Positions 527-57,504 of a stretch of DNA of 64,000 bases are shown in pieces. The stretch comes from Isurus oxyrinchus (taxonomy: Eukaryota), in assembly GCA_026770705.1 (NCBI GenBank), contig JANJGN010000017.1, positions 43,772,001 through 43,836,000 of the forward strand, in the 5' to 3' direction. The first letter of the stretch is position 1; each line of letters opens with the position of its first letter. The notes beneath the pieces are model-generated. The model saw only the letters and a list, made by a program, of their open reading frames with translations. It ran no database searches and was not told where the DNA came from. The position numbers were made by a program, and so were the translations under genes.

Positions 527-553
527 CTGTTGTTGAAGAAACACTGCAATATC
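527..553 (-). CDS. Micro-exon GYCSVSSTT of cassette 18 (rest of cassette is outside the window)
   Basis: tttctctatag|GATATTGCAGTGTTTCTTCAACAACAG|gttagt, 27 nt, phase 1-1. Confidence 0.6.
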
Positions 554-1909
554 CTATAGAGAAACACATACAGTTTAATTGCTTTGGTAAGTGTTTTTGA
601 AGAATCTTCTATTATTCATACTCATAGAAGTATTAGTATTAAATTATTAACATCAGGTATTATTGACAATTACGAAAAAGTGAACAGGTAAAGTTGCACT
701 GGTGCAACGAGCCTGTCACACAAGGTATACAAGATATACAGCCCCACCACCGTCAAGTAATAAAACAAAATAAAATGTGTTCAGGATGGCCACTCTCCAC
801 TGCGCATTCAGGGAGTGAAACCCCTTGCGGTGGTGATACGTCACTGCATTTTGATGCAGAACCTATAAAGCCACATGTGTGCGGTCAATGGCACCCTGTA
901 CAATGGGGATAGCTGCTATCGTGATAAAGCCAAGCTGCACAACATGGAACCAACTGACCTCCCTTGCCCTAGACTACTGACTGCCAGTCACCTCCTTCAT
1001 TGCAGTACATGACAAAATGAGAGTTTGTGGCCACAGTCACTGACAGTGCCATCCTTGCACTGCTCTGGGGCTGCAGCTCTGCCCACCAGGCGCAATAGAT
1101 TTCAAGGCACACCTGCATTGTTAAACAGAGATGTCACACAAGTTTTCCGGAAACTACTGCTCTCGCTGGTGCAGAGATTTAAGGTGGCAAGGATGCACGG
1201 GAATCTCACCACACACCTACCTCCGCCAGAATTAAGAATTGGGCAGAAAGGTCCATCGTCAAGCTCCCTTGCCCGTTGCCACTTATAGAACTTAAGGGGC
1301 CAATTAATGATTACTTAAGAGCCTCATCCCCCCACCGTTGGTCTTGACCCAGCTGCAGGCGTCACTGTCACCATGCGTTACAGCTAAAACAGTGCGACCG
1401 CTTGTCGACTCTTTGCGTCGTGATGGGCAAAAGGAGTTCCATCGATCATGGATCCTCAGAGTCTGACTGAGGACAGGAGATCTGGAAGTGGGAGCCCACT
1501 AAGACCCAGCCCCCCGCTCTGATGCCAACAACCCTGCTCTCCAGACAATAACATGGAAGTTGTTGATGATTCTTTTATATCAGGTTGATGGGTAGCCCTG
1601 TCAGCTCCTGAATGCCTGTTTAGCCGTGTGAGGTTAAGAGATGACATGCGCTGGAATAATGATGTCAGATGCACCAGAGTGAGGGTCATATCAGCTTTAC
1701 ACGCTGACTGATGTCACGATCTGTCTGCATACTTGCAGCACACGCTCCTAATGCCCACCCAATGCCATTATCAAAATCAGGCCTGGCAAATCTCACTGAA
1801 AATATGGTCGCTATGGAGAGAGATTTTACAGTTACCGTATTTCAGGTTGACCCAGTTTGACCATTTGAAATAGTAATGAACCGATCTGTCCTGACCATAA
1901 TATCACAGA

Positions 1910-3247
1910 TCACAAGACACACTGCAGAAAAATATCTCACATCTTCAGGACTCAGCTGTACTGATTCACAATATGAACTACAACTTTCATTGACGTGTCA
2001 TTCTTAAGTTTAACAGTCATTATTGTAATCATAACATACTAACAACATAAATTTAAATATTAGATCATTTGCTGAAAGTTCTCTTACCGTAATTAATGTA
2101 AGAGCAGTGATCACAGAAATCAGAACAACAGTTGCCATAAAATTGACAGCTGTAATCACAGGAACAACCTGATGAATATCCCCCACAGTTGTATCTGCAT
2201 GAGCCGTGTCCTGTTATACAGTAAATGGCAAGTTAGATCTGATAATATATTGATTGTTAACAATGATGCAGATTACAATTTGCAAAGAAATGTAAGGAAC
2301 ACATCATTCAAAAGTGGATCAAACATTTTCTAGAAGGTATTTTCCGTACCTGTTGTAGGTTCAGAAGTCTCTGTAAAATAAAAAAATAAGATAGGTACGA
2401 AGATTATTTTTTCACCTCCATTCCCTACCTGACACATTCAGTAGAATAGGAGAATCTATCAACACATGCTAGGTACAACTTGCTGCAGGAAGTTTTCCTG
2501 CCCCCACTTGCGATGATTCTATTGTTGTCGGGCGTGGAAAGGCTGCATGGTGTGATTCACACAGGAAGGAAACCCAACCACAGCAGGGCTGAATTGAAAC
2601 GCACCCCATTTGGATGTTGTGATGGACTCAACCCACATTGCGGGGTCACAACTTGATGGAGAAGACGTAAATGCTCTTGAACTGTGGCTAAGGGCCATAT
2701 AACTGATATGGTCAGTGGTGTTTTGTATGTTGCATTATTTAAACTTAAAAAAAGGCTGGAGCTCTCACTGGATCCTTATCACAGAATCACAGTGCAGAAG
2801 AGGCCCTTTGGCCCATCAAGTCTGCACCGACACGTGAGAAACACCTCACCTACCTACCTAATCCCATTTACTAGCACTTGTCCCAAAGCCATGAATGTTA
2901 TGACGTGCCAAGTGCACATCCAGGTACTTTTTAAAGGTTATGAGGCAACCTGCCTCCACCACCCTCCCAGGCAATGCATTCCAGACTGTCACCAGTCTCT
3001 CGGTAAAAAAGTTTTTCCTCACATCACGCCTAAATCTCCTGACCCTTACCTTGAACTAATGCCCCCATGTGACTGCTCCTTCAACTAAGGGGAACAGTTG
3101 CTCCCGATCCACCCTACCCATGCACCTCATATGTCTGGTGTCCAATTGTAACTCCCAAACGGTGAGTGGGCAGCAGGGATTTGGATAATGTAACAGAAAT
3201 TGAGGTTAAATATTACTAACCTGTTGTTGAAGAAACACTGCAATATC
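1910..3247 (-). CDS. Cassette 17: predicted stalk micro-exons + hydrophobic anchor exon + stop exon
   Basis: Exons 3221-3247 (GYCSVSSTT), 2350-2370 (ETSEPTT), 2088-2149 ([21 protein letters not shown]), 1910-1921 (CVL*). AG acceptors on all, GT donors on the internal exons, phases compatible. Confidence 0.6.
2780..3130 (-). mobile_element. CR1 LINE 3' fragment (array copy)
   Basis: Same insertion and position as 86-436. Confidence 0.88.
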
Positions 3248-4588
3248 CTATAGAGGAACACATATTTGCTTTGGTAAGTGTTTTTGAAGAACCTTCTATT
3301 ATTTATACTCATAGAAGTATTAGTATTAAATTATTAACATCAGGTATTATTGACAATTACGAACAAGTGAACAGGTAAAGTTGCACTGGTGCAACGAGCC
3401 TGTCGCACAAGGTATACAGCCCCACCACCGTCAAGTAATAAAACAAAATAAAATGTGTTCAGGATGGCCACTCTCCACTGCGCATTCAGGGAGTGAAACC
3501 CCTTGCGGTGGTGATACATCTCTGCATTTTGATGCAGAACCTATAAAGCCACATGTGTGCGGTCAATGGCACCCTGTACAATGGGGATAGCTGCTATCGT
3601 GATGAAGCCAAGCTGCACAAGATGGAACCGACTGACCTCCCTTGACCTAGACTACTGACCGCCAGTCACCTCCTTCATTGCAGTACATGACAAAATGAGA
3701 GTGTGTGGCTACAGTCACTGACAGTGCCATCCTTGCGCTGCTCTGGGGCTGCAGCTCTGCCCACCAGGCGCAATAGATTTCAAGGCGCACCTGCTTTGTA
3801 AAACAGAGATGTCACACAAGTTTGCCAGAAACTACTGCTCTCACTGGTGCAGAGATTTAAGGTGGTAAGGACGCACGGGAATCTCACCACACACCTACCT
3901 CTGCCAGAATTAAGAATTGGGCAGAAAGGTCCATCGTCAAGCTCCCTTGCCCGTTGCCACTTATAGAACTTAAGGGGCCAATTAATGATTACTTAAGAGC
4001 CTCATCCTCCCACCGTTGGTCTTGACCCAGCTGCAGGCGTCACTGTCACCATGCGTTACAGCTAAAACAGTGCGACCGCTTGTCGACTCTTTTGGAGGAG
4101 ATGTGCAAAAGGAGTTCCATCGATCATGGCCCCTCAGAGTCTGACTAAGGACAGGAGATCTGGAAGTGGGAGCCCACTAAGACCCAGCCCCCCCGCTCTG
4201 ATGCCAACAACCCTGCTCTCCTGACAATAACATGGAAGTTGTTGATGAAACTTTTATATCGGGTTGATGGGTAGCCCTGTCAGCTCCTGAATGCCTGTTT
4301 AGCCATGTGAGGTTAAGAGATGACATGCGCTGGAATAATGATGTCAGATGCACCAGAGTGAGGGTCATATCAGCTTTACATGCTGACTGATGTCACGATC
4401 TGTCTGCATACTTGCAACACATGCTCCTAATGCCCACCCAATGCCATTATCAAAATCAGGCTTGGCAAATCTCACTGAAAATATGGTCGCTATGGAGAGA
4501 GATTTTACAGTTACCGTATTTCAGGTTGACCCAGTTTGACCATTTGAAATAGTAATGAACCGATCTGTCCTGACCATAATATCACAGA

Positions 4589-6079
4589 TCACAAGACACA
4601 CTGCAGAAAAATATCTCACATCTTCAGGACTCAGCTGTACTGATTCACAATATGAACTACAACTTTCATTGACGTGTCATTCTTAAGTTTAACAGTCATT
4701 ATTGTAATCATAACATACTAACAACAGAAATTTAAATATTAGCTCATTTGCTGAAAGTTCTCTTACCGTAATTAATGTAAGAGCAGTGATCACAGAAATC
4801 AGAACAACAGTTGCCATAAAATTGACAGCTGTAATCACAGGAACAACCTGATGAATATCCCCCACAGTTGTATCTGCATGAGCCGTGTCCTGTTATACAG
4901 TAAATGGCAAGTTAGATCTGATAATATATTGATTGTTAACAATGATGCAGATTACAATTTGCAAAGAAATGTAACACATCATTCAAAAGTGGATCAAACA
5001 TTTTCTAGAAGGTATTTTCCGTACCTGTTGTAGGTTCAGAAGTCTCTGTAAAATAAAAAAATAAGATAGGTACGAAGATTATTTTTTCACCTCCATTCCC
5101 TACCTGACACATTCAGTAGAATAGGAGAATCTATCAACACATGCTTGGTACAACTTGCTGTAGGAAGTTTTCCTGCCCCCACGTGCGATGATTCTATTGT
5201 TGTCGGGCGTGGAAAGGCTGCAGGGTGTGATTCACACAGGAGGGAATCCCAAACACAGCAGGGCTGAATTCAAACACACCCCATTTGAATGTTGTGAGGG
5301 CCTCAACCCTCAGTGTGGGGGTCACAAATTGATGGAGTAGAGGTAAATGCTCTTGAACTGTGGCTAAGGCCAATATCCCCAACTGACATGGTCAGAAGTT
5401 TTTTTGTATCTCCCATTCTTTAAACTTAAAAAAAGGCTGCAGCTCTCACTGAATCCTTATCACAGAATCACAGAATCACAGTGCAGAAGTGGCCCTTTGG
5501 CCCATCGAGTCTGCACTGACACGTGAGAAACACCTGACCTACCTACCTAATCCCATTTCCCAGCACTTGGCCCAAAGCCTTGAATGTTATGATGTGCCAA
5601 GTGATCATCCAGGTATTTTTTAAAGGTTATGAGGCAACCTGCCTCCATCACCCTCCCAGGCAATGCATTCTAGACTGTCACCACCCTCTGGATAAAAAAG
5701 CTTTTCCTCTGATCCCCCCTCAATATCCTGCCCCTCACCTTGAACTTTTGCCCCCAAGTGACAGCTCCTTCAACTAAGGGGAACAGCTGCTCCTTATCCA
5801 CCCTACCCATGCACCTCATATGTCTGGTGTCATACTGTAACTCCCAAACGGTGAGCGGGCAGCAGGGATTTGGTAATTCCATGTTTACGGAGATAATATG
5901 CAGAATTTATACGACACTTTACGAAGACTTAACCAAATCAACAAGGTGATTCTCTGAGTACAGACATTAAGGTTAATTGTTCTGGCGGATATTGGGTGAA
6001 CAAAATATACAAACTGATAATGTAACAGAAATTGAGTTTAAATATTACTGACCTGTTGTTGAAGAAACACTGCAATATC
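4589..6079 (-). CDS. Cassette 16: stalk micro-exons + anchor + stop exon
   Basis: Exons 6053-6079 (GYCSVSSTT), 5025-5045 (ETSEPTT), 4767-4828 (hydrophobic), 4589-4600 (CVL*). Confidence 0.6.
5461..5819 (-). mobile_element. CR1 LINE 3' fragment (array copy)
   Basis: RVVTV motif and (ATTCTGTG)n tail. Confidence 0.88.
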
Positions 6080-7433
6080 CTGTAGAGGAACACATACAGT
6101 TTATTTGCTTTGGTAAGTGTTTTTGAAGAATCTTCTATTATTCATACTCATAGAAGTATTAGTACTAAATTATTAACATCAGGTATTATTGACAATTACG
6201 AACAAGTGAACAGGTAAAGTTGCACTGGTGCAACGAGCCTGTCACACAAGGTATACAAGATATACAGCCCCCCCACCGTCAAGAAATAAACAAAATAAAA
6301 TGTGTTCAGGATGGCCACTTTCCACTGCACATTCAGGGAGTGAAACCCCTTGCGGTGGTGATACATCACTGCATTTTGATGCAGAACCTATAAAGCCACA
6401 TGTGTGCGGTCAATGGCACCCTGTACAATGGGGATAGCTGCTATCGTGATAAAGCCTAGCTGCACAACATGGAACCAACTGACCTCCCTTGCCCTAGACT
6501 ACTGACTGCCAGTCACCTCCTTCATTGCAGTACATGACAAAATGAGAGTTTGTGGCCACAGTCACTGACAGTGCCATCCTTGCGCTGCTCTGGGGCTGCA
6601 GCTCTGCCCACCAGGCGCAATAGATTTCAAGGTGCACCGGCTTTGTAAAATAGAGATGTCAAACAAGTTTGCCGCAAACTACTGCTCTCGCTGGTGCAGA
6701 GATTTAAGGTGGCAAGGACGCACGGGAATCTCACCACACACCTACCTCTGCCAGAATTAAGAATTGGGCAGAAAGGCCCATCGTCAAGCTCCCTTGCCCG
6801 TTGCCACTTTTAGAACTTAAGGGGCCAATTAATGATTACTTAAGAGCCTCATCCCCCCACCGTTGGTCTTGACCCAGCTGCAGGCGTCACTGTCACCATG
6901 CGTTACAGCTAAAACAGTGCGACCGCTTGTCGCCTCTTTGCGTCGTGATGGGCAAAAGGAGTTCCATCGATCATGGACCCTCAGAGTCTGACTGAGGACA
7001 GGAGATCTGGAAGTGGAGTCCACTAAGACCCAGCCCCCCGCTCTGATGCCAACAACCCTGCTCTCCTGACAGTAACATGGAAGTTGTTGATGATCCTTTT
7101 ATATCGGGTTGATGGGTAGCCCTGTCAGCTCCTGAATGCCTGTTTAGCCGTGTGAGGTTCAGAGATGACATGCGCTGGAATAATGATGTCAGATGCACCA
7201 GAGTGAGGGTCACATCAGCTTTACACGCTGACTGATGTCACGATCTGTCTGCATACTTGCAGCACACGCTCCTAATGCCCACCCAATGCCATTATCAAAA
7301 TCAGGCCAGGCAAGTCTCACTGAAAATATGGTGGCTATGGAGAGAGATTTTACAGTTACCGTATTTCAGGTTGACCCAGTTTGACCATTTGAAATAGTAA
7401 TGAACCGATCTGTCCTGACCATAATATCGCAGA

Positions 7434-39415: not shown

Positions 39416-41257
39416 TCACAAGACACACTGCAGAAAAATATCTCACATCTTCAGGACTCAGCTGTACTGATTCACAATATGAACTACAACTTTCATTGAT
39501 GTGTCACTCTTAAGTTTAACACTCATTATTGTAATCATAATATACGAACAAGATAAATTTAAATATTAGCTGATGTGCTGAAAATTCTCTTACCGTAATT
39601 AATGTCAGAGCAGTGATCACAGAAATCAGAACAACAGTTGCCATAAAATTGACAGCTGTAATCACAGGAACAACCTGATGAATTTCCCCCACAGTTGTAT
39701 CTGCATGAGCCGTGTCCTGTTATAATGTAAATGGCAAGTTAGATCTGATATTATGTTGATTGTTACCAAGGATGCAGATTACAATTTTCAAAGAAATGTA
39801 ATGAAGTTTTATCATTCCAAAATGGATCAATACATTTTTAATCTATTTCCATACCTGTTGATGTAGTCTCAGAATTCTCTGTTGAAACAAAACAATTGCA
39901 TAAGTAAGTAGAATATTTTTTCATATCCATTCCCAACCTGATAGATAGTTCAGTAGAAGAGAAATCACAGAAATCAGAATAATTGCCATAATACTGACAG
40001 CTATAATCACAGGAACAACCTGATGAATATCCCCCACAGCTGTATCTGCATGAGCTGTGCCCTGATATATAGTAAATGGCAAGTTAGATCTGATATTATG
40101 TTGATTGTTAACAAGGATGCAGATTACAATTCACAAAGAAATGTGAGGAACACTTATCATTCAAAAGTGGATCAAACATTTTCTGGAAGGTATTTTCCAT
40201 ACCTGTTGTTATGCGTTCAGGAGTCTCTGCAAAATAAAAAAATAAGATAGGTACGAAGATTATTTTTTCATCCATTCCCCACCTGACACATTCAGTAGAA
40301 CAGGAGAATCTATCAACACATGCTTGGTACAACGTGCTGCAGAAAGGATTCCTGCCCCCACTTGCGATGATTCTATTGTTGTCGGACGTGGAAAGGCTGC
40401 AGAGTGTGATTCACACAGGAGGGAATCCCAAACACAGCAGGGCTGAATTCAGACACACCCCATTTGGATGTTGTGAGGGCCTCAACCCTCAGTGTGGGGG
40501 TCACAAATTGATGGAGTAGAGGTAAATGCTCTTGAACTGTGGCTAAGGCCAATATCCCTAACTGACATGGTCAGAAGTTTTTTGTATGTCCCATTCTTTA
40601 AACTTAAAAAAAGGCTGCAGCTCTCACCGAATCCTTATCGCAGAATCACACAATCACAGTGCAGAAGTGGCCCTTTGGCCCATCGAGTCTGCACTGACAC
40701 GTGAGAAACACCTGACCTACCTACCTAATCCCATTTCCCAGCACTTGGCCCAAAGCCTTGAATGTTATGATGTGCCAAGTGATCATCCAGGTATTTTATA
40801 AAGGTTATGAGGCAACCTGCCTCCACCACCCTCCCAGGCAATGCATTCCAGACTGTCACCACCCTCTGGGTAACAAAGCTTTTCCTCTGATCCCCCCTCA
40901 ATATCCTGCCCCTCACCTTGAACTTTTGCCCCCAAGTGACTGCTCCTTCAACTAAGGGGAACAGCTGCTCCTTATCCACCCTACCCATGCACCTCATATG
41001 TCTGGTGTCCAACAGTAACTCCCAAACGGTGAGTGGGCAGCAGGGATTTGGTAATTCCATGTTTACGGAGATAATATGCAGACTTTATACGACAGTTTAC
41101 GAAGACTTAACCAAATCAACAAGGTGATTCTCTGAGTACAGACATTAAGGTTAATTGTTCTGGCGGATATTGGGTGAACAAAATATACAAACTGATAATG
41201 TAACAGAAATTGAGGTTAAATATTACTGACCTGTTATTGAAGAAACACTGCAATATC
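39416..41257 (-). CDS. Cassette 5: stalk micro-exons + anchor + stop exon
   Basis: Exons 41231-41257 (GYCSVSSIT), 40203-40226, 39855-39878, 39594-39655, 39416-39427. Confidence 0.62.
40639..40997 (-). mobile_element. CR1 LINE 3' fragment (array copy)
   Basis: As other copies. Confidence 0.88.
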
Positions 41258-42622
41258 CTATAGAGGAACACATACAGTTTATTTGCTTTGGTAAGTATTT
41301 TTGAAGAATCTTCTATTATTCATACTCTAGAAGTATTAGTACTAAATTATTAACATCAGGTATTATTGACAATTACGAACAAGTGAACAGGTAAAGTTGC
41401 ACTGGTGCAACGAGCCTGTCACACAAGGTATACAAGATATACAGCCCCACCACCGTCAAGAAATAAACAAAGTAATATGTGTTCAGGATGGCCACTTTCC
41501 ACTGCACATTCAGGGAGTGAAACCCCTTGCGGTGGTGATACATCACTGCATTTTGATGCAGAACCTATAAAGCCACATGTGTGCGGTCAATGGCACCCTG
41601 TACAATGGGGATAGCTGCTATCGTGATAAAGCCAAGCTGCACAACATGGAACCAACTGACCTCCCTTGCCCTAGACTACTGACTGCCAGTCACCTCCTTC
41701 ATTGCAGTACATGACAAAATGAGAGTTTGTGGCCACAGTCACTGACAGTGCCATCCTTGCGCTGCTCTGGGGCTGCAGCTCTGCCCACCAGGCGCAATAG
41801 ATTTCAAGGCGCACCGGCTTTGTAAAACAGAGATGTCAAACAATTTTGCCGGAAACTACTGCTCTCACTGGTGCAGAGATTTAACGTGGCAAGGACGCAC
41901 GGGAATCTCACCACACACCTACCTCTGCCAGAATTAAGAATTGGGCAGAAAGGCCCATCGTCAAGCTCCCTTGCCCGTTGCCACTTTTAGAACTTAAGGG
42001 GCCAATTAATGATTACTTAAGAGCCTCATCCCCCCACCGTTGGTCTTGACCCAGCTGCAGGCGTCACTGTCACCATGCGTTACAGCTAAAACAGTGCGAC
42101 CGCTTGTCGACTCTTTGGGTGGAGATGGGCAAAAGGAGTTCCATCGATCATGGACCCTCAGAGTCTGACTGAGGACAGGAGATCTGGAAGTGGGAGCCCA
42201 CTAAGACCCAGCCCCCCGCTCTGATGCCAACAACCCTGCTCTCCTGACAGTAACATGGAAGTTGTTGATGATCCTTTTATATCAGGTTGATGGTTAGCCC
42301 TGTCAGCTCCTGAATGCCTGTTTAGCCGTGTGAGGTTCAGAGATGACATGCGCTGGAATAATGATGTCAGATGCACCAGAGTGAGGGTCACATCAGCTTT
42401 ACACGGTGACTGATACGGTGACTGATGTCACGATCTGTCTGCATACTTGCAGCACACGCTCCTAATGCCCACCCAATGCCATTATCAAAATCAGGCCAGG
42501 CAAGTCTCAATGATATTTGGTGGCTATGGAGAGAGATTTTACAGTTACCGTATTTCAGGTTGACCCAGTTTGACCATTTGAAATAGTAATGAACCGATCT
42601 GTCCTGACCATAATATCACAGA

Positions 42623-44463
42623 TCACAAGACACACTGCAGAAAAATATCTCACATCTTCAGGACTCAGCTGTACTGATTCACAATATGAACTACAACTTT
42701 CATTGACATGTCATTCTTAAGTTTAACAGTCATTATTGTAATCATAACATACTAACAACATAAATTTAAATATTAGCTCATTTGCTGAAAGTTCTCTTAC
42801 CGTAATTAATATAAGAGCAGTGATCACAGAAATCAGAACAACAGTTGCCATAAAATTGACAGCTGTAATCACAGGAACAACCTGATGAATTTCCCCCACA
42901 GTTGTATCTGCATGAGCCGTGTCCTGTTATAACGTAAATGGCAAGTTAGATCTGATATTATGTTGATTGTTACCAAGGATGCAGATTACAATTTTCAAAG
43001 AAATGTAATGAAGTTTTATCATTCCAAAATGGATCAATACATTTTTAATCTATTTCCATACCTGTTGATGTAGTCTCAGAATTCTCTGTTGAAACAAAAC
43101 AATTGCATAAGTAAGTAGAATATTTTTTCATATCCATTCCCAACCTGATAGATAGTTCAGTAGAAGAGAAATCACAGAAATCAGAACAATTGCCATAATA
43201 CTGACAGCTATAATCACAGGAACAACCTGATGAATATTCCCCACAGTTTTTTCTGCATGAGCCGTGTCCTGATATACAGTTAATGGCAAGTTAGATCTGA
43301 TAATATGTTGAATTTTAACAAGGATGCAGATTACAATTCACAAAGAAATGTAAGGAACACTTATCAATGAAAAGTGGATCAAACATTTTCTGGAAGGTAT
43401 TTTCCATACCTGTTGTTGTGCGTTCAGGAGTCTCTGCAAAATAAAAAAATAAGATAGGTACGAAGATTATTTTTTCATCCATTCCCCACCTGACACATTC
43501 AGTAGAACAGGAGAATCTATCAACACATGCTTGGTACAATGTGCTGCAGAAAGGATTCCTGCCCCCACTTGCGATGATTCTATTGTTGTCGGGCGTGGAA
43601 AGGCTGCAGAGTGTGATTCACACAGGAGGGAATCCCAAACACAGCAGGGCTGAATTCAAACACACCCCATTTGGATGTTGTGAGGGCCTCAACCCTCAGT
43701 GTGGGGGTCACAAATTGATGGAGTAGAGGTAAATGCTCTTGAACTGTGGCTAAGGCCAATATCCCTAACTGACATGGTCAGAAGTTTTTTGTATGTCCCA
43801 TTCTTTAAACTTAAAAAAAGGCTGCCGCTCTCACTGAATCTTATCAGAGAATCACAGAATCACAGTGCAGAAGAGGCCCTTTGGCCCATCGAGTCTGCAC
43901 TGACACGTGAGAAACACCTGACCTACCTACCTAATCCCATTTCCCAGCACTTGGCCCAAAGCCTTGAATGTTATGATGTGCCAAGTGATCATCCAGGTAT
44001 TTTTTAAAGGTTATAAGGCAACCTGCCTACACCACCCTCCCAGGCAATGCATTCCAGACTGTCACCACCCTCTGGGTAAAAATGCTTTTCCTCTGATCCC
44101 CCCTAAATATCCTGCCCCTCACCTTGAACTTTTGCCCCCAAGTGACTGCTCCTTCAACTAAGGGGAACAGCTGCTCCTTATCCACCCTACCCATGCACCT
44201 CATATGTCTGGTGTCCTATTGTAACTCCCAAACGGTGAGCGGGCAGCAGGGATTTGGTAATTCCATGTTTACGGAGATAATATGCAGACTTTATACGACA
44301 CTTTACGAAGACTTAACCAAATCAACAAGGTGATTCTCTGAGTACAGACATTAAGGTTAATTGTTCTGGCGGATATTGGGTGAACAAAATATACAAACTG
44401 ATAATGTAACAGAAATTGAGGTTAAATATTACTGACCTGTTGTTGAAGAAACACTGCAATATC
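42623..44463 (-). CDS. Cassette 4: stalk micro-exons + anchor + stop exon
   Basis: Exons 44437-44463, 43410-43433 (ETPERTTT), 43062-43085, 42801-42862, 42623-42634. Confidence 0.62.
43845..44203 (-). mobile_element. CR1 LINE 3' fragment (last array copy)
   Basis: As other copies. The homologous site is empty at ~48250 and ~51385. Confidence 0.88.
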
Positions 44464-45817: not shown

Positions 45818-48506
45818 TCACAAGACACACTGCAGAAAAATATCTCACATCTTCAGGACTCAGCTGTACTGATTCACAATATGAACTAGAACTTTCATTG
45901 ATGTGTCATTCTTATGTTTAACACTCATTATTGTAATCATAATATACTAACAACATAAATTTAAATATTAGCTCATTTGCTGAAAGTTCTCTTACCGTAA
46001 TTAATGTAAGAGCAGTGATCACAGAAATCAGAACAACAGTTGCCATAATATTGACAGCTATAATCACAGGAACAACCTGATGAATTTCCCCCACAGTTGG
46101 ATCTGCATGAGCCGTGTCCTGTTATACAGTAAATGGCCGGTTAGATCTGATATTATGTTGATTGTTAACAAGGATGCTGTTTACAATTTTCTAAGAAATG
46201 TAATGAAGTTTTATCATTCCAAAATGGATCAATACATTTTTTTAACGTATTTCCATACCTGTTGATGTAGTTTCAGAATTCTCTGTTGAAACAAAAAAAT
46301 AGCATAAGTAAGATTATTTTTTCATATCCATTCCCTATCTGACATGTTCAGTAGAATATAAGAATCTATCATCACATGCTAGGTACCACTTGCTGCAGAA
46401 AAGATGCTCTATGCTACATGCCAGTGGACAAAAACAAATGTCTGCAGATTGGAAAGGACATAATATTGAAGGCATTTAAGTTTCTTTCTGGTCCTTTTGG
46501 TTTAGTCTTCTCATTCAAAACACTTTTAAAAATGCTATAATTGCTTTTCACAATTAAACAAGTGTCAACATGATGTAATCCTTTGAGGAACATTGATCAA
46601 GAAACATTGGCCAGAAAATTCCTCAAGAAGTTGACATCCTGACCAGTGAAATCTGCCATTGATCCCGGTAAAGTTCACGTGGTCAGGTATGGAGAACAAG
46701 GGGAGCCACATACGCCACTTGCATCCTCTCCCATCCCACCCCTCATGCAAAAATGTTGGAAATGCTTATCATAATTGCCAGTCCAGGAGAGAGCTGGGGT
46801 GCCCTTTTGGATCCCACAGGCATGTCATTTACTGGAACCAAAGAAGCAGCAAGTCCACATTAATCTGATTCCTTTTTGTCCTACAGCCTCCTACACCTTG
46901 TGCTCTCCTGCTGGTACACACAGCGCCACCAGCTTTTTCCACGCCCTCTTGAGAATGCCCCATTCAAGTGAGCCACAGTCAGTAGTGGCCTTAAAAGGAG
47001 CGCTATCCTGATGTCACATGGCCCCACCGGTTGGTACGATGCCACATTGCCGATTTTGGACCCTCACAGGTCAGGTGACTAATTCGCTTGTCCCCCTCTA
47101 AGGAACGAACAGACAGCTGCAAGATGGACACTGCACTCAGAGTGTTTAAAGCGTTAGGCACCCAATTTCCAGGCTTGGTTCATATTTAAGAGCTTCTGCT
47201 TTTGCAAAGCGTCTGGAAGCACCCTGCAGTGGCTTTGCCTGGTGTTGTGATGAGTTCCTGGATTTGGCTGAATGTGATTCCAAATCCTCACAGGGAGGCA
47301 AAGGTTTAAGTGGCATGAACTACAACAGGCACTGAGGAAATGGTGGCAGTGTGTCTGGGTCTGCAGCATGACAAGGGAATGGAGAAGAGGGCATGTACAG
47401 GGCAAACTCTATGAGATACCCTGTGCCAACTTGCAGATTGACTCATCCAAGCTCCTTGATAGAGACAGGAGGCTGTCTGGCAGACTGCCAAATGCACAAA
47501 TCACTAAAACTGGATGCACAGTTAAATAAGGTCACTTTAAGCCAAGCACTCGGGTGCATTTCTACAGGACTAGAATTGAGAAGTACAGAAGTTATGCTAA
47601 GCCTGTATTGATCATTGTTTGGATGACACTTGGAGCAATGTTTACAGTTCTGGCTGCCATATTGTTAAAAAAGACATAGAGACAGTGGAGAAGGTGCAAA
47701 GAAAGAATGGCACCACAACTGTGAGGTACTACATATCAGGAATGGCTGAACAGGCTGGAGTTCTTCCCCTTGAGAAGGTAAAGGTGAGGGGTGATCCAGT
47801 GCAGGTCTTCAAAATTAGGAAATATTTTGATAAGACATACACAGAGCCAACACCAGCAAAAACGTATATCTATTTAGCACCTTTAACAGAATAAAATAAT
47901 ACAAGGTGCTTCACAGGAGCATCATAAAACAAAACATTGCTTTGAACCTGGGATGTGGAAGTCCCGCCCCCATGTCTGACAGATCTAATTGTTGCCAGCA
48001 GTGGAAAGGCTGCAGGGTGTGATTCACACAGGAGCGAAACCCAAACACAGCCGGGCTGAGTTCAAAAACACCCCATCACCCCATTTGGATGTTGTGAGGG
48101 CCTCAACCCACAGTGAGGGTCATGAATTGATGGAGAAAACATAAATGCTCTTGAATGGTGGCTAAAGCCCATAAAACTGACAGGGTCAGAAGTTTTTTAC
48201 ATGACCCATTCTTTAAGCTTAAAAAAAGGCTGCAGCTCTCACTGGATCCTTATGTGTGGTGTCTAATTGTAACTCCCAAACGTTGAGTGGGCAGCAGGGA
48301 TTTGGATGACTGTATGTTTTGGGAGATAATATGCAGACTTTAGATAGCAGTTTACAAAAATTTTACCAAATCAGTGATGCTCCGAGTGCAGAAATTAAGA
48401 TTAATTGTTCTGACTGATATAGTGTCAGCAAATTTACAAACTGACAATTTAACAGAAAATGAGCTTAAATATTACTAACCTGTTGTTGAAGAAACACTGC
48501 AGTATC
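45818..48506 (-). CDS. Cassette 3 (diverged): stalk micro-exons + anchor + stop exon
   Basis: Exons 48480-48506 (GYCSVSSTT), 46259-46282 (ENSETTST), 45996-46057 ([21 protein letters not shown]), 45818-45829 (CVL*). Confidence 0.62.
47500..47840 (+). mobile_element. Degenerate CR1-clade LINE ORF2 fragment
   Basis: Remnants of CR1 RT C-terminal motifs (EVMLSLY, KDIETVEKVQR, RGDPVQVFKI). Confidence 0.75.
47858..47940 (-). mobile_element. Short L2-like LINE 3' tail remnant
   Basis: tatttagcacctttaac...aaggtgcttcacaggagc resembles the reverse complement of fish/shark L2 3' ends. Recognised from memory only. Confidence 0.4.
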
Positions 48507-50430
48507 CTACAGAGGAACACATACAGCTTATTTGCTTTGCTAAGTGTTTTTAAAGAATCTTCTATCATTCATACTCATAGAAATATTAATATAACGCTTG
48601 ACAAAAATAAATTATTACCATCAGGTATTATAACATTTATGAACAAATGAAGAGGAAAGGTCTCACTGGTGCAGCGAGCCTGTCACATAAAACATACGAT
48701 ATATACAGCCAAACCACCATCAAGAAATGAAATAAAATAAATTAAAATGTGTTCAGGATGGCCACTCTCCACTGCACATTCAGGGAGCGAAGCCCTGCCT
48801 TTTGATGCAGAACCTACGAAATCACATGTGTGCGGTCAATGGCACCCTGCACAATGGGGAAAGCTGGTATCCTGATGAAGCTACGGTGCACAAGAGGGGA
48901 CAAACTGACCTCCCCTGACCTAAACTACTGACTGCTGGTCACACCCAACAGTGCAGTGGATAGCAAATGTGCACCTGCTTTGTAAAACAGACATGTCACA
49001 CAAGTTGGCTGGAAACTTCTGCTCTCGCTGGTGGAGAGCTTGAAGGTGGCAAGAACGCACGGGAATCTCACTGCACACCTACCTCTGCCAGAATTGAGAT
49101 CTGGGTCAGAAGGCTCATCAACAATCTCCCTTGCTCACCTCCACTTGAGGACATTAAGGGGCCAATTAATCATTACTTAAGAGCCTCATCCCCCCATCCT
49201 TGGTCTTGACCCAGCTGCAGTTGGGCCTGTCACCATGCATGACAGCTAAAACAGTGCGACTGCTTGTCAACTCTGGGCATCGTGATGGGCAAAGGGGGGT
49301 TCCATCGGTCATGGACACTCAGGGTCTGATTGAGGACAGGAGGTCTGGAAGTAGGAGCCCACTAAGACGCAGCCCCCCTCCCTGCTGCCAACCCACTGCA
49401 CTCCTCCCCCTACAAATGTCACCCCGTGAAACCTAGCCGTGCAATACTTACCTGTGCCCTGCATTGCTCCATGATCCTTAGACTCCATTGCCTGTCCTTC
49501 TGGCAGCAGCCACGTCCACCACATTGGCGCTGTTGAATGCAGGAGCTGCAGTCTCTGCCTGACCGGCAGCACTTGGTAGGCAAGAATTCTGCGCATTGGG
49601 TCTTGGTTGCAGATGACTGCCCGCCGATGATGCCACCACTGTGTGTGGTTTGGTGCACAGCCCGGATCTCTCAGCAGCTTCCCAGCTGCCAGGTGACACC
49701 CGGAACACCTCAAGAAGGTTCCGCCCCTTGTTCATCAGTGAGGTTGTGGTAAGAGAATTACTCCCTGAGGACCCTGGTTGCAGGAGGCATTGTACTGAGA
49801 GTACTCACCCCCCTCCTCCCCATCTCTACGAGCAGCTTGTCCTGCTCTGTGCTGCCTCTGCTCTATCTCTGCAGATCAACAAGGATGGTAACTATATCAC
49901 CCATGACTGACAGCAAGTGATCTGAACTGAAACCTTCAAGTGAGAACCAAGACCTTCACCACATGTGACACCAATCCCTGTAAACGCCATCAACTTTAAA
50001 CACCTGTAGAAAACTCACAACATTTCTACAAACTCAGCAAAACCCAGCTGAAATCTGAACCTGACAGTAAGTTGGACAGATTTGATGATCCTTTTATATT
50101 GGGTTGATGGGTGGTCCTGTCAGCTCCTGAATGGCTGTCCTGCTGTGCGAAGTTAAGAAATGGACATGAGCTGGAATAATGATGTCAGTCATGCCAGAGT
50201 GAGCTTTACATCAGCTTTACACACTGACTGACGTCACTGATCTGTCTGCATATATCCAGCACACACTCCTAATACCCACCCAATGCCCTTGTCAAAATTA
50301 AGCCAGGCGCAGATCAATGAAAATATAGGCGCTATGGAGCCACATTTTGCAGTCACCATATTTCAGGTTGACCCAGTTTGAATATTTGAAATAGCAAAGC
50401 TCCGATCTGTCCTGACCATAATGTCACAGA

Positions 50431-51644
50431 TCACAATGCACACTGCAGGAAAAAACCTCACACCATCAGAACTCAGCTATACTGATTCACAATATGAACT
50501 GCAATTTCATTAAAGTTTCACTCTTAAGTTGAACAGTAATTTTTTTGTATTCATAATATACTAACAACATAAATTTAAATATTAGCTCATTTACTGGAAG
50601 TTCTCTTACCGTAATTAATGTAAGAGCAGTGATCACAGAAATCAGAACAACAGTTGCCATAATATTGACAGCTGTAATCACAGGAACAACCTGATGAATT
50701 TCCCCCACAGTTGTATCTGCATGAGCCGTGTCCTGTTATAACGTAAATGGCAAGTTAGATCTGATATTATGTTGATTGTTAACAAGGATGCAGATTACAA
50801 TTTACAAAGAAATGTAAGGAACACTTATCATTCAAAAGTGGATCAAACATTTTCTAGAAAGTATTTTCCGTACCTGTTGTTCCGGGCTTAGAAGTCTCTG
50901 TTAAAACTAAAAAAATGCATAAGTAAGAAGATTATTTTTCATATCCATTCCCTACTGACATGTTCAGTAGAATAAGAGAATCTATCAACACATGCTAGGT
51001 ACATCTTGCTCAGAAAAGAAGCTCTGTGCTACACACCAATAGACAAAAACCACTGATTGCAGACTGGAAAGGACATAATGTTAGTTTTTTTAAAGCTATT
51101 TCTCATATTAATTCCCAATGCTGTGTCAGCCTGTGTCAAAATAATAAAAATAATTGCATCAAACAAGAATATTTTTCATATTGGTTCAGGCTTCAAACCT
51201 CATTTGATGTTTTTGAACATGATTTAATAAAGAAAAGTGAGCAGGACATTTGTTGATGGGTGATGTCCATTAGGGTTGTGCCTCCCAAAGATGATGCAGG
51301 TGCAGGCAAAGTTTAACACTTGAGGTAAGTGCCAATTTCCCTTCACCTTTAGACTTGGTGGAGGGAGCATTCCCACTGGATCCTCATGTCTGGTGGCCAA
51401 TTGTAACTCCTAATCGGTGAGTGGGCAGCAGGGATTTGGATGACCTCAATTTTATGGAGATAATATGCAGACTTTAGACGTCTGTTCACAAAGACTTTAC
51501 CAAATCAGTGATGTGATTCTCTGAGTACAGACATTAAGATTAATTGTTCTGACTGATATAGAGTCAGCAAATATACAAACTGACAATGTAACAGAAAATG
51601 ACTTAAATATTACTGACCTGTTGTTGAATAAACACTGCAGTATC
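50431..51644 (-). CDS. Cassette 2 (diverged): stalk micro-exons + anchor + stop exon
   Basis: Exons 51618-51644 (GYCSVYSTT), 50874-50897 (ETSKPGTT), 50610-50671 ([21 protein letters not shown]), 50431-50442 (CAL*). Confidence 0.62.
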
Positions 51645-53501
51645 CTATGGAGGAACACATGCAGCTTATTTGGTTTGGTAAGTGTTTTTGAAGAATCTTC
51701 TATCATTCATACTCATAGAAATATTAATATAATACATGACAAAAATAAATAATTACCATCAGGTGTTATTGACATTCATGAGCAAACAGACATAAGGTTC
51801 ACTGGTACAGCCAGCCTGTCACACACAACATGCCATATAGACAGCCCCACAATCATCAAGAAATCAAACAAAAGATAATGCACTCAAAATGGCCACACTC
51901 CACAACACATTCAGGGAGTGAAACCCTTTGTGGTTTTGATACATCTCTGCATTTAGATGTAGAACCTACAAAGTGACATGTGTGTGGTCAATGGCACCCT
52001 GCATAATTGGGAAAGCTGCTATCCTGATCAAGCTACAGTGCATAAGAGGGATCAAACTGACCTCCCCTGCCCTAGACTACTGACTGCCAGTCACCCCCTA
52101 CATTGCATACATGGCAAACTGAGAGGTGCAGTTTGTGGCCACAGTCACTGACAGTGCCATCCTTGTGCTGCTCTGGGGCTGCAGCTCTGCCCACCAGACG
52201 CAATAGACTTCAATGTGCACCTGCTTTGTAAAACAGAGATGTCACACACATTGCTTGGAGGCTTCTGCTCTCGCTGGTGGAGAGCTTGAAGGTGGCAAGG
52301 ACGCATGGGAATCTCACTGCACACCTACCTCTGCCAGAATTAAGATCTGGGCGGGAAGACCCAAACTCGACCACCCTGCCCTGCTGTCAATTGAGGTCCT
52401 TAAGTGGCCAAATGATGACCATTTAAGGGCCTCTTCATGCGGCCACTGGTCTTAACTCAATGGGAGGTTGGCCTGTCACCATGCAACAGTCACAACAGGT
52501 AAAACTCTGTAGCCAGTTGGGGAGGGGCCATTCACTCAATCAAAAGTACTCATTTCCTGATTGAGGAACGGAAATCAGGATCTGGAGGACCCTATGAGAG
52601 CAATCCCTCTGCCATTGCCATGAACCCCCAGAACCCCACACCCCAGACCCCACCCCATGAAATCTCCACCTTGACACTATGTACATGTGGCCTGCATCAG
52701 TCCGTGATCCTGGGACTCTGGTGCCTGTCCTTCCAACAGCAGCTTCAATCTTCCCATTGGCACCTCTGATTGGCCAGCAGCTCTTGGTAGGTGAGGGGGT
52801 TTTGATTCCAGGTGAACCTTCCTGAAAAGAGGCAGTCCACATCTCTCACTGGCTTTCGAGACAGTAGACGAGATGCTCGATGCATCAGCAAGATTCCACA
52901 CATTGTTCCTCAGTGAGGTTGAGGTAAGAAAATTGCTCCCTGAAGACACTGGGTGCATAAGGCATTGTACTGAGAGTACTCATCCCCCTCCTCCATGACT
53001 CCACAAGCAGTTTGTCCTGCTCTGTGCTGCCTCTGCTCTATCTCTGCAGGTCAAAGAGGATGGTAACTATATCACCCATGACTGACAGCAAGTGATCTGA
53101 ACTGAAATCTTGAAGTGAGAACCAAGACCTTCACCACCTGTGACACCACTCCCTGTAAACGCCATCAACTTTAAACATCTGTAGAAAACTCACATTTCTA
53201 CAAACTCAGTAAAACACAGTTGAAACCTGAACCTGACAGTAACATGGAAGTAATTGATGATCCTTTTATATTGGGTTGATAGGTGGTCCTGTTGGCACCT
53301 GAATGCCTGTTCAGCTGTGTGAGGTTAAGAGATGACATGACCTGGAGTAATGAGGCTGGATGTGCCAGAGTGAGTGTCACATCAGCTTTTCACACTGACT
53401 GCATACTTCCAGCACTCCTAATGCCCATCCAATGCCCTTGTCAAAATCAGGCCAGGCACGGCTCACTGAAAATATGGTCGCTATGGAGAGAGATTTTACA
53501 G

Positions 53502-54357
53502 TCACCTCAGGTTGAAGATTTGAAATAGCAAAGCATTGATCTGTCCTGACCATAATGTCACAGACAACAAGACACACTGCAGAAAAAAACTCACACCATC
53601 AGGACTTAGCTACACTGATTCACAATATGAACTTTCATTAACGTGTCATTCTTAAGTTTAAAAGTCATTATTGTAATCATAATATACTAACAACATAAAT
53701 TTAAATATTAGCTCATTTGCTGGAGTTCTCTTACCGTAATTAATGTAAGAACAGTGATCACAGAAATCAGAACAACAGTTGCCATAATATTGACAGCTGT
53801 AATCACAGGAACAATCTGATGAATTTCCCCCACAGTTGTATCTGCATGAGCCGTGTCCTGTTATACAGTAAATGGCAAGTTAGATCTGATATTATGTTGA
53901 TTATTATTAAAGATGCAGATTACAATTTACAAAGAAACGTAAGGAACATTTATCATTCAAAAGTGGATCAAACATTTTCTAGAAAGTATATTCCATACCC
54001 GTTGCTGTAGTTTCAGAAGTCTCTGTTAAAATAAAAAATAGCATAAGTAAGAGGAATATTTTTTCATATCCATTCCCTACCTAACATGTTCAATAGAATA
54101 GTGATCACAGAAATCAGAACATTTGCCATAATACTGACAGCTGTAATCACAGGAACAACCTGATGAATATCCCCCACAGCTGTATCTGCATGAGCCATGT
54201 CCTATTATACAGTAAATGGCAAGTTAGATCTGATATTATGTTGATTATTAACAAGGATTGTTAACAAAGAAATTAAATGAAGTTTTATCATTCAAAAGTG
54301 GATCAAACATTTTCTAGAAGGTATTTTCCATACCTGTTGTTCTGTGTTCAGAAGCCT
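53502..54357 (-). CDS. Cassette 1 (closest to CUB): stalk micro-exons + anchor + extended terminal exon
   Basis: Exons 54334-54357 (EASEHRTT), 53999-54022 (ETSETTAT), 53735-53796 ([21 protein letters not shown]), 53502-53576 (CVLLSVTLWSGQINALLFQIFNLR*). Confidence 0.62.
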
Positions 54358-54849
54358 CTGTTAAAACTAAAAAAAATGCATATGTAAGAAGAATATTTTT
54401 CATACCTATTTAAATCCCAAACCTCGTTTGATCTTTTTGATTGGCACTAATAAAAGAATGACCAGGTCTGATGAACCTTTGTACTACCTGGCGTAAATTC
54501 TTTCATCTTTCTCCCCTTAGCACCGTTAGTGGCACCAAGTCAATCTGCTATCTGACATGCTTAGAAGAATAGGAGAAAGCGCTGAGCCCGATAAGGGATG
54601 TAAGGTGCTAGATTTTCACAGAGTCCAGAAGATTCCGTTCACATTTCAAAATTGCAGACATTGGTCAGATCCTTTTACAACAACTCCCATTTTTACCGGT
54701 CTGCTTTCAATGACAGACGTGGGTTAGAAAACTAGTGTCTGGTGGTACAGTTTCAATAGAACATTTTATTTAAAATTCCATGAGGACTAACATTATGTCA
54801 TTATAGATGCTTGGCTGAGTTTCAAAAGCTACAATTATTACAGAAAAAG

Positions 54850-56700
54850 AGACATGTTGAACCTTTTCTTCTTGCACTCAGCAGGACATTTCACAGGAAT
54901 ACCAATTAAGGGGAAAACAACAATTTATCCTGTATGTGAAGAGATTGCTGATTGGTTGGCAAGTGGACTCTGATTGATGGAGGTGTTGCCATGGAGAATG
55001 TACCAGTGATAGTGACTGACAGTTAATTGCCCAGCATGGTTTGAAATTTAAATCCAGTAGCTTGACCCTGATTGGTCAAAGCATTGCCCTGAGGAATGAG
55101 TCAGTGAATGGCTGTCACTTATTTTGTTTAGCTGCAACAGGTACAATGTGTGTACATGTTCTTTCTGTCTGCAAAGATTGGGCTCTATGAGTTAATATCT
55201 GAAACTTACAGTACATGCAAATGCACCATGCTGTGAACCTGGCTGACAATCTTAAAGTAGTTGTCAGAGTAATGCTTAGCACAATGAGGATTATTTAGCA
55301 AATAGTGTACAATCACAGAGTCACATCCAACATTGGACACTGTGTTTTGAGTTTTGGAAGCATGGGCTGGTTGGGTACAGCCTGCACCTTGACCATTGTG
55401 AACAGTGGCTAGGACATGCAGTTCGATAGGATCTGCCAGTCTTTGAGACTTACAGCCTCTATACCTTGCATCACACTGGCACTGAAATTCATATACCACA
55501 TTACTCATTTGCATGATAGACAGAACATGTTTTTGTCTTGACGGCAGCATCCAGTTAGTGGCGCATACCACTCGTGTTGCTACTGTATAGCAGCAGCATG
55601 AAACAGCAAGATTCACCTGTTGTTCAAATTTCTGAGATATCTTGCCTTCCAGGGTAATCTGAGGTAGACTGAGCATTTTCCAGGGCCGAATGTGGCTGCC
55701 TTGGGCCCTTTCATGAGTTTGCGTAATATTGAGTGTGAAACATTCTGATCAGGGTAGCCATTATCCAGCAGGATGCCTTTGATCTGCCCTATTTCAGCAC
55801 CAAGCTTGCACAGTGAGCAAATAGTTAACCTATTTACAAGGTTAACAGTAAGACCAATTATATAGCATGTGGAACTGTAAGAACCCCAGCGCTTATATTG
55901 GCTAGTGAAGGTAGGCTTGCGGTAGACCATGGTAGAGAACCCCCGGCAAGTTTCTCAATGAGTACATCAAGGAAAAAGGAGTTAATTTGACTGCTCTGTT
56001 TCAAAGGTGAAATTGAGTGCAGGATGGAGCTCATTAAGACATGTAAGGAAATTGTTACGTGCAACTGTGGATTTAAATGTAGCAAATGTATCATCCACAT
56101 ATTGGAAAGGTGTGAGGGATAGAGGTTAGATGTCATTCCATCAAAAACACATTTCTCATGGAACCCAAAATTTTTTTTGTGAGAACTGGGCCCAGAGGGG
56201 ATCCCACGGGAACACCTTTTTTAGGGTATGCACGGTGTCATTAAAATTGAACTCCACTGCATGGGTTACCGAGTTCATAAGTTCAATGAATACTGATTCA
56301 GGCAATAATGGCAGTCTAGATCACAATGAAATAGTGCTGCAGTCCAAATATCTCTGGTTTCCTTAAATGGAATATTGGTGAATAGGCTTGCAATGTCAAA
56401 TGAGCAAATGGACACAGCAATGCTATCGATATGCAAGTTCTGTAGGCCTTTGCAAATGTAAAGGAATCCTTTACTATCTATGTAGAAAACTTGGTCAAAA
56501 CTAGTTGTAACAATTCACCCAACCATTTGGCCAATTCAGGTTGTGCATCGATAAGAGAGGGAGTGAAGGGACATCACTTTTGTGTGTCTTGGGCATCCAA
56601 TGCATACACGGACGTAGCTATCAGTGAGGACGAACCCTGTCATATATATCACTCGATAGCTCATCGCTCTTACACAAGTCCGGCAAGTGTTATTTTAGCT
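54850..56700 (-). mobile_element. Degenerate Penelope-like retroelement (RT + GIY-YIG endonuclease)
   Basis: Minus-strand RT motifs SFDIASLFTNIP (~56368-56403), GVPVGSPLGP (~56187-56216), YVDDTFA (56081-56101), VYRKPT and L.NGYP. GIY-YIG-like NVVYEFQCQCDARYRG in ORF 55206-55676. Multiple frameshifts; ends approximate. Confidence 0.9.
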
Positions 56701-56719
56701 TCCTTTTGGGTAGCTTGAG

Positions 56720-56785
56720 CTTATTGAAGGTGGAGCAGGTTGTTCCACCAAATGGCCTACTCCTGCTCCTATTTCTCCTCATGTA
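56720..56785 (+). mobile_element. Short CR1-type 3' UTR remnant
   Basis: ggagcagg...aaatggcctactcctgctcctatttc resembles CR1 3' tails. Recognised from memory. Confidence 0.45.
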
Positions 56786-56896
56786 GAAGTTATGTTGATT
56801 GTAAACAATGTTGCAGATTACAATTTTCAAAGAAATGCAATGAACTTCTATCATTCAGAAGTAAGTGAATACATTTTTTGAAGGGATTTTCCGTAC

Positions 56897-56923
56897 CTGT
56901 TGTTGTAGCTTCAGTCGTCATTG
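56897..56923 (-). CDS. First stalk micro-exon after the CUB domain (AMTTEATTT)
   Basis: ttttattgttttag|CAATGACGACTGAAGCTACAACAACAG|gtacgg, 27 nt, phase 1-1, compatible with the phase-1 end of the CUB exon. Confidence 0.7.
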
Positions 56924-57409
56924 CTAAAACAATAAAAATAAATGCATAAGTAACAAGAATATTTTTCATACACGTTCAAGATTCAAACTTGATTTGATCT
57001 TTCTGAACAGCATTAGAGAAAGAATGACCAGGTCTGATATAATTTTGTGCCAACTGATGTAAATCACTTGTCCTTTCTCTTCTTAGCACCATTAGTGACA
57101 CCAATAAGGGAATCCCCTATCTGACATGTTGGGAAGGATGGGGAATCTATGGACAGATACTAGGTACCTCTTGCTGCAGAAAAGAGGTTCTATGCTACAT
57201 GCCAATAGACAAAAAGTTGAAAGGACATAACGTTAATTTTCTTGAGGATATTTTTCATATCTATTGCCCATGCTGTATCTGTCTCTGTCAAAATAATAAT
57301 TGCAGAAGAAACAGGAATATTTTTCACATTTGTTCAAGCCCAAACTTTATTTGATGTTTTTGAACAGGATTAAAGAACGAAGAGTGACCAGGACATTTCT
57401 GTCCCCCTC

Positions 57410-57504
57410 TTATATGCCAAGTGCATTATTTGAATAGGACTTTGGATAATTGGGACTGAGAACAGCCACATCGGCAGTATCAAGATACCCTCCACAAGAT
57501 CTAC
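57410..57504 (-). pseudogene. Frameshifted duplicate of CUB exon A (GRSCGGYLDTADVAVLSPNYPKSYSNNALGI*)
   Basis: Paralog of 63016-63163 with an intact acceptor. One AATGCAC repeat (7 nt) is lost, giving a frameshift and TAA. The flanking intron ~57505-57860 is homologous to ~63165-63520. Confidence 0.8.

Follow-up and report, generated by a model that had tools for sequence, protein, structure and literature searches.

The window analysed here is a stretch of 64,000 nucleotides from Isurus oxyrinchus (NCBI GenBank assembly GCA_026770705.1; genome of 4.98 Gb), which corresponds to positions 43,772,001-43,836,000 of contig JANJGN010000017.1 (hereafter C17). It carries, on the minus strand, part of a shark gene in which somatomedin-B (SMB) exons alternate with micro-exons of 21-27 nt in a long tandem array, within a protein that also has CUB and zona pellucida (ZP) domains. 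All positions given below are window coordinates unless C17 is indicated. A gene model was built from the window plus 100 kb on each side, by means of tblastn searches with homologs and a micro-exon scan. The model consists of 114 exons (7,905 nt), encodes 2,634 amino acids and has no internal stops. The encoded protein starts with a signal peptide, followed by two CUB domains, one SMB domain, two further CUB domains, 25 SMB-linker units, a last CUB domain, the ZP module, the motif RQKR and a hydrophobic tail. This makes five CUB and 26 SMB domains in total, and SMB repeats, CUB domains and a C-terminal ZP module share one open reading frame, which is the feature of the family to which the gene is compared below. 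There are 73 exons of 30 nt or less, all of them of phase 1-1 and multiples of three; micro-exons make up 1,803 of the 7,905 coding nucleotides (23%) and, within the array, 1,584 of 4,659 (34%). The first exon, coding for the signal peptide, is 65% identical to the N-terminus of the catshark protein. The putative furin-like site RQKR and the predicted transmembrane stretch were read off the model by eye.

Each genomic unit of the array (2.7-4.0 kb) contains one SMB exon of 123 nt and two or three exons of 21-27 nt, all of phase 1-1. The window contains 17 intact SMB exons and the whole gene 26; they code for nine cysteines, have a GTAAGA donor and are separated by about 140 nt from the last E-type exon that precedes them in the unit. 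The term E-type is used here for the linker exons of 24 or 21 nt of the ETPER, ENSE, ETSEPTT and ETSKPGTT kind, and GYCSV for the 27-nt exon. A single SMB copy matches Pfam PF01033 (Somatomedin_B) with an E-value of 1.3e-4 and 22.6 bits, just under the cut-off of 23.1, and PDB entry 2cqw (a chain named Sushi domain containing 2) with an E-value of 4.8e-5. The representative copy at 42801-42923 (minus strand) has both matches and is covered by contigs from four of four sequencing runs. A preliminary description of the window, in which the 48 micro-exons were proposed to encode a mucin-like stalk of about 400 amino acids, had overlooked the 17 intact SMB exons and 13 truncated ones within the same units. 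The figure of 400 is correct as the sum of the 48 micro-exons; with the SMB exons included, the array in the window codes for 1,097 amino acids, of which 170 are cysteines (15%). The linkers are 52% Ser plus Thr, and their Ser/Thr-rich runs extend over about 12-21 residues only, each ended by an SMB module. The alternating SMB exons thus rule out a pure mucin stalk.

Most of the window is occupied by twelve long units of 3,189-3,208 bp, followed by a thirteenth GYCSV exon at 6053-6079 (6053-44463, minus strand), as defined by the exon scan, the gene model and the alignment of the units. A long unit contains, in transcriptional order, the 27-nt GYCSV exon, the 24-nt ETPER exon, a truncated SMB copy, the 24-nt ENSETTST exon and the 123-nt SMB exon; in one example these are placed at 44437-44463, 43410-43433, from 43268, 43062-43085 and 42801-42923, respectively. 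The twelve units are 97.5-99.8% identical and no two of them are the same. Upstream of them, three diverged units (45996-53857, minus strand; 81-92% identity to other units) contain SMB exons at 53735-53857, 50610-50732 and 45996-46118, GYCSV exons at 51618-51644 and 48480-48506, and E-type exons at 50874-50897 (ETSKPGTT) and 46259-46282 (ENSETTST). Further towards the 5' end of the gene, the micro-exons EASEHRTT (54334-54357) and ETSETTAT (53999-54022), both linkers, enclose a truncated SMB copy that starts at 54201, and the 27-nt micro-exon AMTTEATTT (56897-56923) lies between the CUB domains and the SMB array; these three micro-exons, also on the minus strand, were located by peptide search and exon scan. 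At the other end, the first two short units (about 2.7 kb each; 527-5045, minus strand) contain ETSEPTT exons at 5025-5045 and 2350-2370, SMB exons at 4767-4889 and 2088-2210, and GYCSV exons at 3221-3247 and 527-553, identified by the exon scan and the model. Beyond the left end of the window the gene continues with eight further short units, a 12-nt AQTS exon, CUB 5, three ZP exons and a transmembrane exon.

A six-frame search located the 48 micro-exon peptides in the numbers previously listed (17+12+13+2+1+1+1+1), all on the minus strand and each flanked by AG and GT. The exons are of 24 nt (28 copies), 27 nt (18) and 21 nt (2), which add up to 1,200 nt or 400 amino acids. All 48 are of phase 1-1 and stop-free; the last four letters are ACAG in 47 of them and ACGG in the remaining one. 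Their donors are GTATGG (27), GTCAGT (14), GTACGG (4) and GTTAGT (3). The ends, donors, lengths and open phase of the preliminary description were in this way confirmed. The pyrimidine-rich acceptors that it attributed to all of them are found in the E-type exons (60-80% pyrimidine), and the GYCSV acceptors reach only 55-60%. The reported intron indels of 1, 4, 8 and 12 nt among units are also present, together with others of 2, 3, 6, 7 and 9 nt. A rule fitted post hoc to the micro-exon features finds 48 sites on the minus strand of the window and none on the plus strand. In 111 kb of flanking sequence it finds a single site on each strand, and 20 sequences simulated with a Markov model gave 0-3 sites (mean 0.55). 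There are only 14 distinct sequences among the 48 micro-exons, and since these have been copied in a tandem array they do not amount to 48 independent observations.

Evidence of splicing comes from assembled contigs. No run containing the CUB stretch is recorded as RNA, and three of them were guessed to be RNA; four guessed-RNA contig sets (X1-X3 and X10, from two samples and two studies) were aligned to 2.4 kb of the window (41,200-43,600). All four runs contain a joint from SMB to GYCSV, between 41256 and 42800; the 1,543 nt left out have CT..AC ends. The GYCSV-ETSEPTT-SMB junction of the short units is found in three of four (X1-X3), where 16 letters stand between SMB and GYCSV and form, together with five letters shared with the acceptor, the 21-nt ETSEPTT exon. 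One X10 contig reads SMB-GYCSV-ETPER-ENSE, with a joint between 43085 and 43410 that also has CT..AC ends. As far as coverage is concerned, X1-X3 contain only the SMB and GYCSV exons of the aligned region, and X10 adds ETPER, ENSE and three short intronic pieces that run into unlike sequence. In X3, a loose end matches, except for a single mismatch, the last GYC exon and the first letters of the 12-nt AQTS exon. The contigs join exons in genomic order, and the four micro-exon types seen joined represent, by type, 44 of the 48 copies in the window. The proposal that these are coding, symmetric phase-1 micro-exons which are spliced is therefore borne out by contig junctions in all four runs. A processed copy of the gene was considered as the origin of the joined contigs and rejected: 39 SMB-exon matches were found genome-wide (a lower bound), and since all of them lie in this locus, such a copy is an unlikely source.

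Conservation among the array copies was measured as alleles per site in exons and in their flanks, bearing in mind that the copies are not independent. SMB exons have 0.12 alleles per site and their flanks 0.34 (p 1.6e-5). Conservation of the GYCSV exon is marginal, with p values of 0.035 for the 17 copies in the window and 0.32 for all 26. This comparison of exon with intron substitution is one of the checks suggested in the preliminary description, where coding constraint on the micro-exons had been claimed. The result is strong for SMB only, marginal for GYCSV and negative for the E-type exons; the lack of frameshifts in a few 24-nt lineages is weak support when taken alone.

A different line of evidence is provided by the cysteines. 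Besides the usual SMB pattern, modules in homologs may have an additional cysteine in the SMB exon and another one in GYC; both are present in 128 modules, neither in 225 and the inner one alone in 2 (isoforms being counted repeatedly), and three apparent outer-only modules are explained by the first cysteine of the next CUB domain. SMB modules with ten cysteines occur in sharks, rays, sturgeons, paddlefish and bowfin, and those of teleosts contain eight. We infer from this co-variation that the GYC cysteine and the extra SMB cysteine form a fifth disulfide, and because the two vary together the GYCSV exon is likely to be obligatory. An AlphaFold2 prediction of a catshark protein (P0017; alignment of eight rows) had a mean pLDDT of 28.7 and was unusable for the disulfide. 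Related to this, 13 pairs of ortholog isoforms were compared: nine differ by whole units, one by an SMB exon alone, one at the N-terminus and two by a C-terminal truncation, and none by a micro-exon alone.

Taking these data as a whole, the micro-exons very probably serve as spliced linkers within a tandem expansion of SMB exons, in a shark gene of the DMBT1/CUZD1 family, and each SMB exon and its linkers are likely to be included as one block and not to be shuffled singly. Several points weigh against this interpretation. That the runs are RNA is a guess, they come from two samples, and contigs lose rare splice forms; moreover, as the array copies are indistinguishable, contigs cannot place all 25 units in one transcript. 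The ETPER/ENSE junction is seen in one of four runs despite the presence in the assembly of 12 units of this kind, versus 10 units with ETSEPTT, and the 5' part of the gene (CUB 1-4, the A-type exons and four singleton micro-exons) lacks read support here. E-type exons show no extra conservation at all, with 0.71 alleles per site versus 0.45 in their flanks (p 0.96). In one shark isoform, the 41-residue SMB exon alone is absent, which would leave the GYC cysteine unpaired. Finally, 11 of 13 truncated SMB copies are open, keep an AG acceptor and are in frame up to the ENSETTST donor.

The main alternative, although improbable, is that the gene yields many protein variants by leaving out individual micro-exons or groups of units, as in the micro-exon genes (MEGs) of schistosomes; combinatorial skipping of the micro-exons had been proposed in the preliminary description. 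All array exons are symmetric and of phase 1, so any skip keeps the frame, the GYCSV acceptors are weak, ETPER/ENSE junctions are under-represented with respect to the assembly, and some ortholog isoforms are without whole units and one without an SMB exon. Against these observations, no junction that skips a micro-exon was found in the four contig sets, in which rare forms are lost, and none of the 13 isoform pairs differs by a micro-exon alone. Besides, the cysteine co-variation binds GYCSV to SMB, probably through a disulfide, and skipping would add little diversity because the copies are near-identical. Where repeats are nearly identical, isoforms that differ by whole units can result from errors in read mapping. 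Skipping of single micro-exons has thus found no support so far.

A far less probable alternative concerns the 13 truncated SMB copies in the window, each of which lies within an intron of 311-324 nt and lacks the CC pair and the donor, retaining six or seven cysteines. They could act as an alternative acceptor, giving an exon of 207 nt that runs into ENSETTST and encodes a defective SMB module, and the 11 open copies cited above speak for it. Nevertheless, these 11 are not independent because they come from recent duplication, the other two of the 13 are frameshifted and the CC pair is lost. The representative copy at 43146-43268 (minus strand) has no Pfam match, and the only informative contig, from X10, skips the 324-nt intron in which it is found; no contig covers a truncated copy. 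These copies are likely to be pseudo-exons. It is equally improbable that the array is in part an assembly artefact or transcriptionally dead, with only a few units in use: contigs cannot tell which copies are used, and of the words sampled from the CUB exon stretch a fraction of 0.82 was present in DNA runs, but no two long units are identical, the 26 SMB exons have all retained nine cysteines and intact splice sites and are less variable than their flanks, and both unit types occur in spliced contigs.

If the micro-exons are linkers included as a block with SMB, each of the elements described could be assigned a role. The GYCSV exon would supply the tenth cysteine of each module, pairing with the extra SMB cysteine, and the E-type exons would provide short, O-glycosylated, Thr-rich spacers. 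The array would gain and lose whole units by unequal crossing-over, its length varying by unit number as in human DMBT1; the uniform phase 1 means that whole-unit gain or loss is tolerated. The protein would be shed at the furin-like RQKR site and polymerised in mucus via its ZP module, with the SMB domains displayed as a multivalent binding surface, probably for microbes. Shedding at a furin-like site, polymerisation through ZP and O-glycosylation of linkers belong to the general knowledge on ZP proteins. A mucus polymer carrying, after shedding, a multivalent SMB surface that binds microbes is advanced here by analogy and only tentatively, as the weakest of these steps, with chances slightly below even.

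Proteins related to this gene are already present in public databases. A search with the SMB exon retrieved five of five candidate proteins, all from sharks and rays; the clusters to which they belong bear the names DMBT1-like, CUZD1-like, cubilin-like or uncharacterized. In catshark, horn shark, electric ray and another shark, repeats of the form SMB-GYCxxxST-linker precede CUB-ZP. The catshark proteins read SMB-GYCSVYSTT-linker and then CUB-ZP, and the peptide GYCSVSSTT itself occurs in Scyliorhinus torazame XP_072333730; since catshark proteins contain GYCSV-type linkers, the micro-exon peptides are already included in public gene models. Automated annotation can also miss these exons, as the preliminary description expected. 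Examples are a stored Heterodontus model, where many SMB exons are in the wrong frame, and a catshark model that runs into an intron. In the public models of relatives (P0002, P0004 and P0015), SMB exons are read in a wrong hydrophobic frame or introns are read through at missed micro-exons.

With the SMB-CUB-ZP end of the catshark protein as query, 342 matches were obtained; among the 120 listed, about 45 carry SMB (by eye) and all of these are from fishes, and the tetrapod DMBT1 proteins among the matches listed mostly carry SRCR. In a ZP tree of 42 sequences hand-picked from 135 homologs, the model falls in an elasmobranch clade with 11 shark and ray proteins (support 100/99). The fork that joins sharks, CUZD1 and a coelacanth DMBT1 has support of 84/74 and was drawn open, so that the tree favours neither DMBT1 nor CUZD1 as the closer relative. 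Literature searches for SMB with CUB, zona pellucida and DMBT1, for CUZD1 with somatomedin and for SMB with DMBT1 in fish found nothing, most subscription journals being outside their scope.

The closest known systems are the DMBT1/CUZD1-like proteins of sharks and other fishes (Scyliorhinus canicula XP_038629366-72, S. torazame XP_072333729/30 and Heterodontus francisci XP_067909385), with the same domain order. The SMB exon is 80-85% identical to those of these three species and the ZP module 82-85%, and the linker is of the same GYC-plus-Thr type. The differences are of number and arrangement: the SMB modules number 26 here, the retrieved proteins of cartilaginous fishes that bear SMB have 2-14 of them and a partial teleost model has up to 18, and this gene has five CUB domains and 13 units with a duplicated E-type exon and a truncated SMB copy. 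It is not a new kind of system; it is a new, large and likely mucosal member of the known SMB-CUB-ZP family of fishes, with an unusually long array. Concerning expression in fish, cuzd1-named genes, which may or may not be the SMB-bearing ones, are up-regulated in mutant zebrafish whose goblet cells are more numerous (PMC8959185), induced in salmon gill (PMC8129531) and induced in cod larvae along with zg16 (PMC5938384); the N-terminus described in the cod study is a different one.

The likeness to human and other tetrapod DMBT1 lies in an array of small cysteine-rich domains with Ser/Thr spacers, placed before CUB and ZP, and in the neighbourhood of HTRA1. In DMBT1 the SID spacers are probably encoded by small exons. 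Unlike tetrapod DMBT1, the repeated domain is SMB instead of SRCR and a C-terminal transmembrane segment is kept. Human DMBT1 alleles have 8-13 SRCR repeats, the short allele binding fewer bacteria (PMC5435793), and the DMBT1 repeat unit is estimated at 4,059 bp (PMC11201333). Schistosome MEGs resemble the shark gene in their many symmetric short exons (6-36 nt in MEGs), their signal peptide and their secreted or membrane-anchored product. In MEGs, 75-80% of the coding sequence is described as lying in short symmetric exons and variants arise by exon skipping (PMC4015677, PMC5825161). In the shark gene, on the other hand, micro-exons have a much smaller share of the coding sequence (23%, or 34% of the array), they are near-identical duplicates that alternate with domain exons, and no skipping was seen. 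Compared with the PTS stalk of mucins, there is no long uninterrupted Ser/Thr/Pro stretch, and an SMB module follows every 12-21 residues.

What the locus offers is thus an array of DMBT1 style built on SMB and not on SRCR, adjacent to HTRA1, together with an open 114-exon model in which 73 exons do not exceed 30 nt; genes of this structure may be mispredicted by annotation pipelines. An SMB domain whose ten cysteines are split over a domain exon and a micro-exon would be a small, testable example in which a disulfide makes the inclusion of a micro-exon obligatory. A much broader proposal, which we consider rather unlikely, is that sharks and ray-finned fishes have, at the DMBT1 position next to HTRA1, a mucosal protein in which SMB modules take over the role of SRCR, and that in the present shark the cassette of 25 units, all of phase 1, is also spliced in blocks. 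A single allele would then give binding polymers of many lengths and linker types, with the 27-nt exon closing a fifth disulfide in each module. If this were true, the scarcity of ETPER/ENSE junctions among the contigs would be its earliest indication.

With regard to the chromosomal context, HTRA1 exons lie at C17:43,971,703-44,005,122 (minus strand), on the same strand as the gene and about 87 kb upstream of its first exon; human DMBT1 adjoins HTRA1 as well. In sturgeon, HTRA1 and an SMB-CUB-ZP gene are merged into one gene model (P0079), so the two are presumably neighbours in that fish too. No paper was found on the order HTRA1-DMBT1-CUZD1 at 10q26. No SRCR match was found in 464 kb (the window plus 400 kb of flank), where mouse, horse and coelacanth DMBT1 queries gave CUB and ZP matches only.

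Other features of the locus deserve mention. CUB 4 is encoded in the window by two exons on the minus strand: the first one (63016-63163; 148 nt, phase 1-2) was identified by tblastn with shark homologs and has AG/GT ends and an open frame, and the second one (61200-61408; 209 nt, phase 2-1) matches Pfam CUB with an E-value of 4.8e-13. The second exons of CUB 3 (C17:43,843,898-43,844,106, minus strand) and CUB 4 are about 96% identical. At the position of YDY or DDY in the other three CUB domains, these two show SEY or TEY; they also contain a WPYQKL stretch, and judging from these residues their ligand or calcium binding may differ from that of the other CUB domains. A CUB first exon is also present as a decayed and truncated copy at 57413-57504 (minus strand; partial tblastn match), which is probably a pseudo-exon, and four similar copies upstream, at about C17:43,848,000-43,854,000 (minus strand), carry a stop. 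Three decayed CUB copies are each followed by an AMTTESTET micro-exon with a period of 1,538 bp and constitute a second, small exon-duplication array. Four relatives of AMTTEATTT are present upstream of the window. Micro-exon relatives also lie at 57260-57285 and at about C17:43,837,750 and C17:43,855,000 (minus strand), two of them with a lost donor or altered acceptor; the remaining one, a candidate micro-exon ETFESASN upstream of the window, has intact AG/GT and was excluded from the model. Three ORFs at 55.2-56.2 kb have no Pfam match. Introns at 55200-56700, and at about 43800-44200 and its equivalent in each unit, contain decayed retroelement-like sequence, which we take to resemble LINE fragments. 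Finally, divergent CUB exons are found at C17:43,704,466-43,710,185 (minus strand), at a distance of about 22-28 kb downstream from the stop codon of the gene; an in-frame stop is present in one of them, and they may belong to a second CUB gene or a pseudogene.

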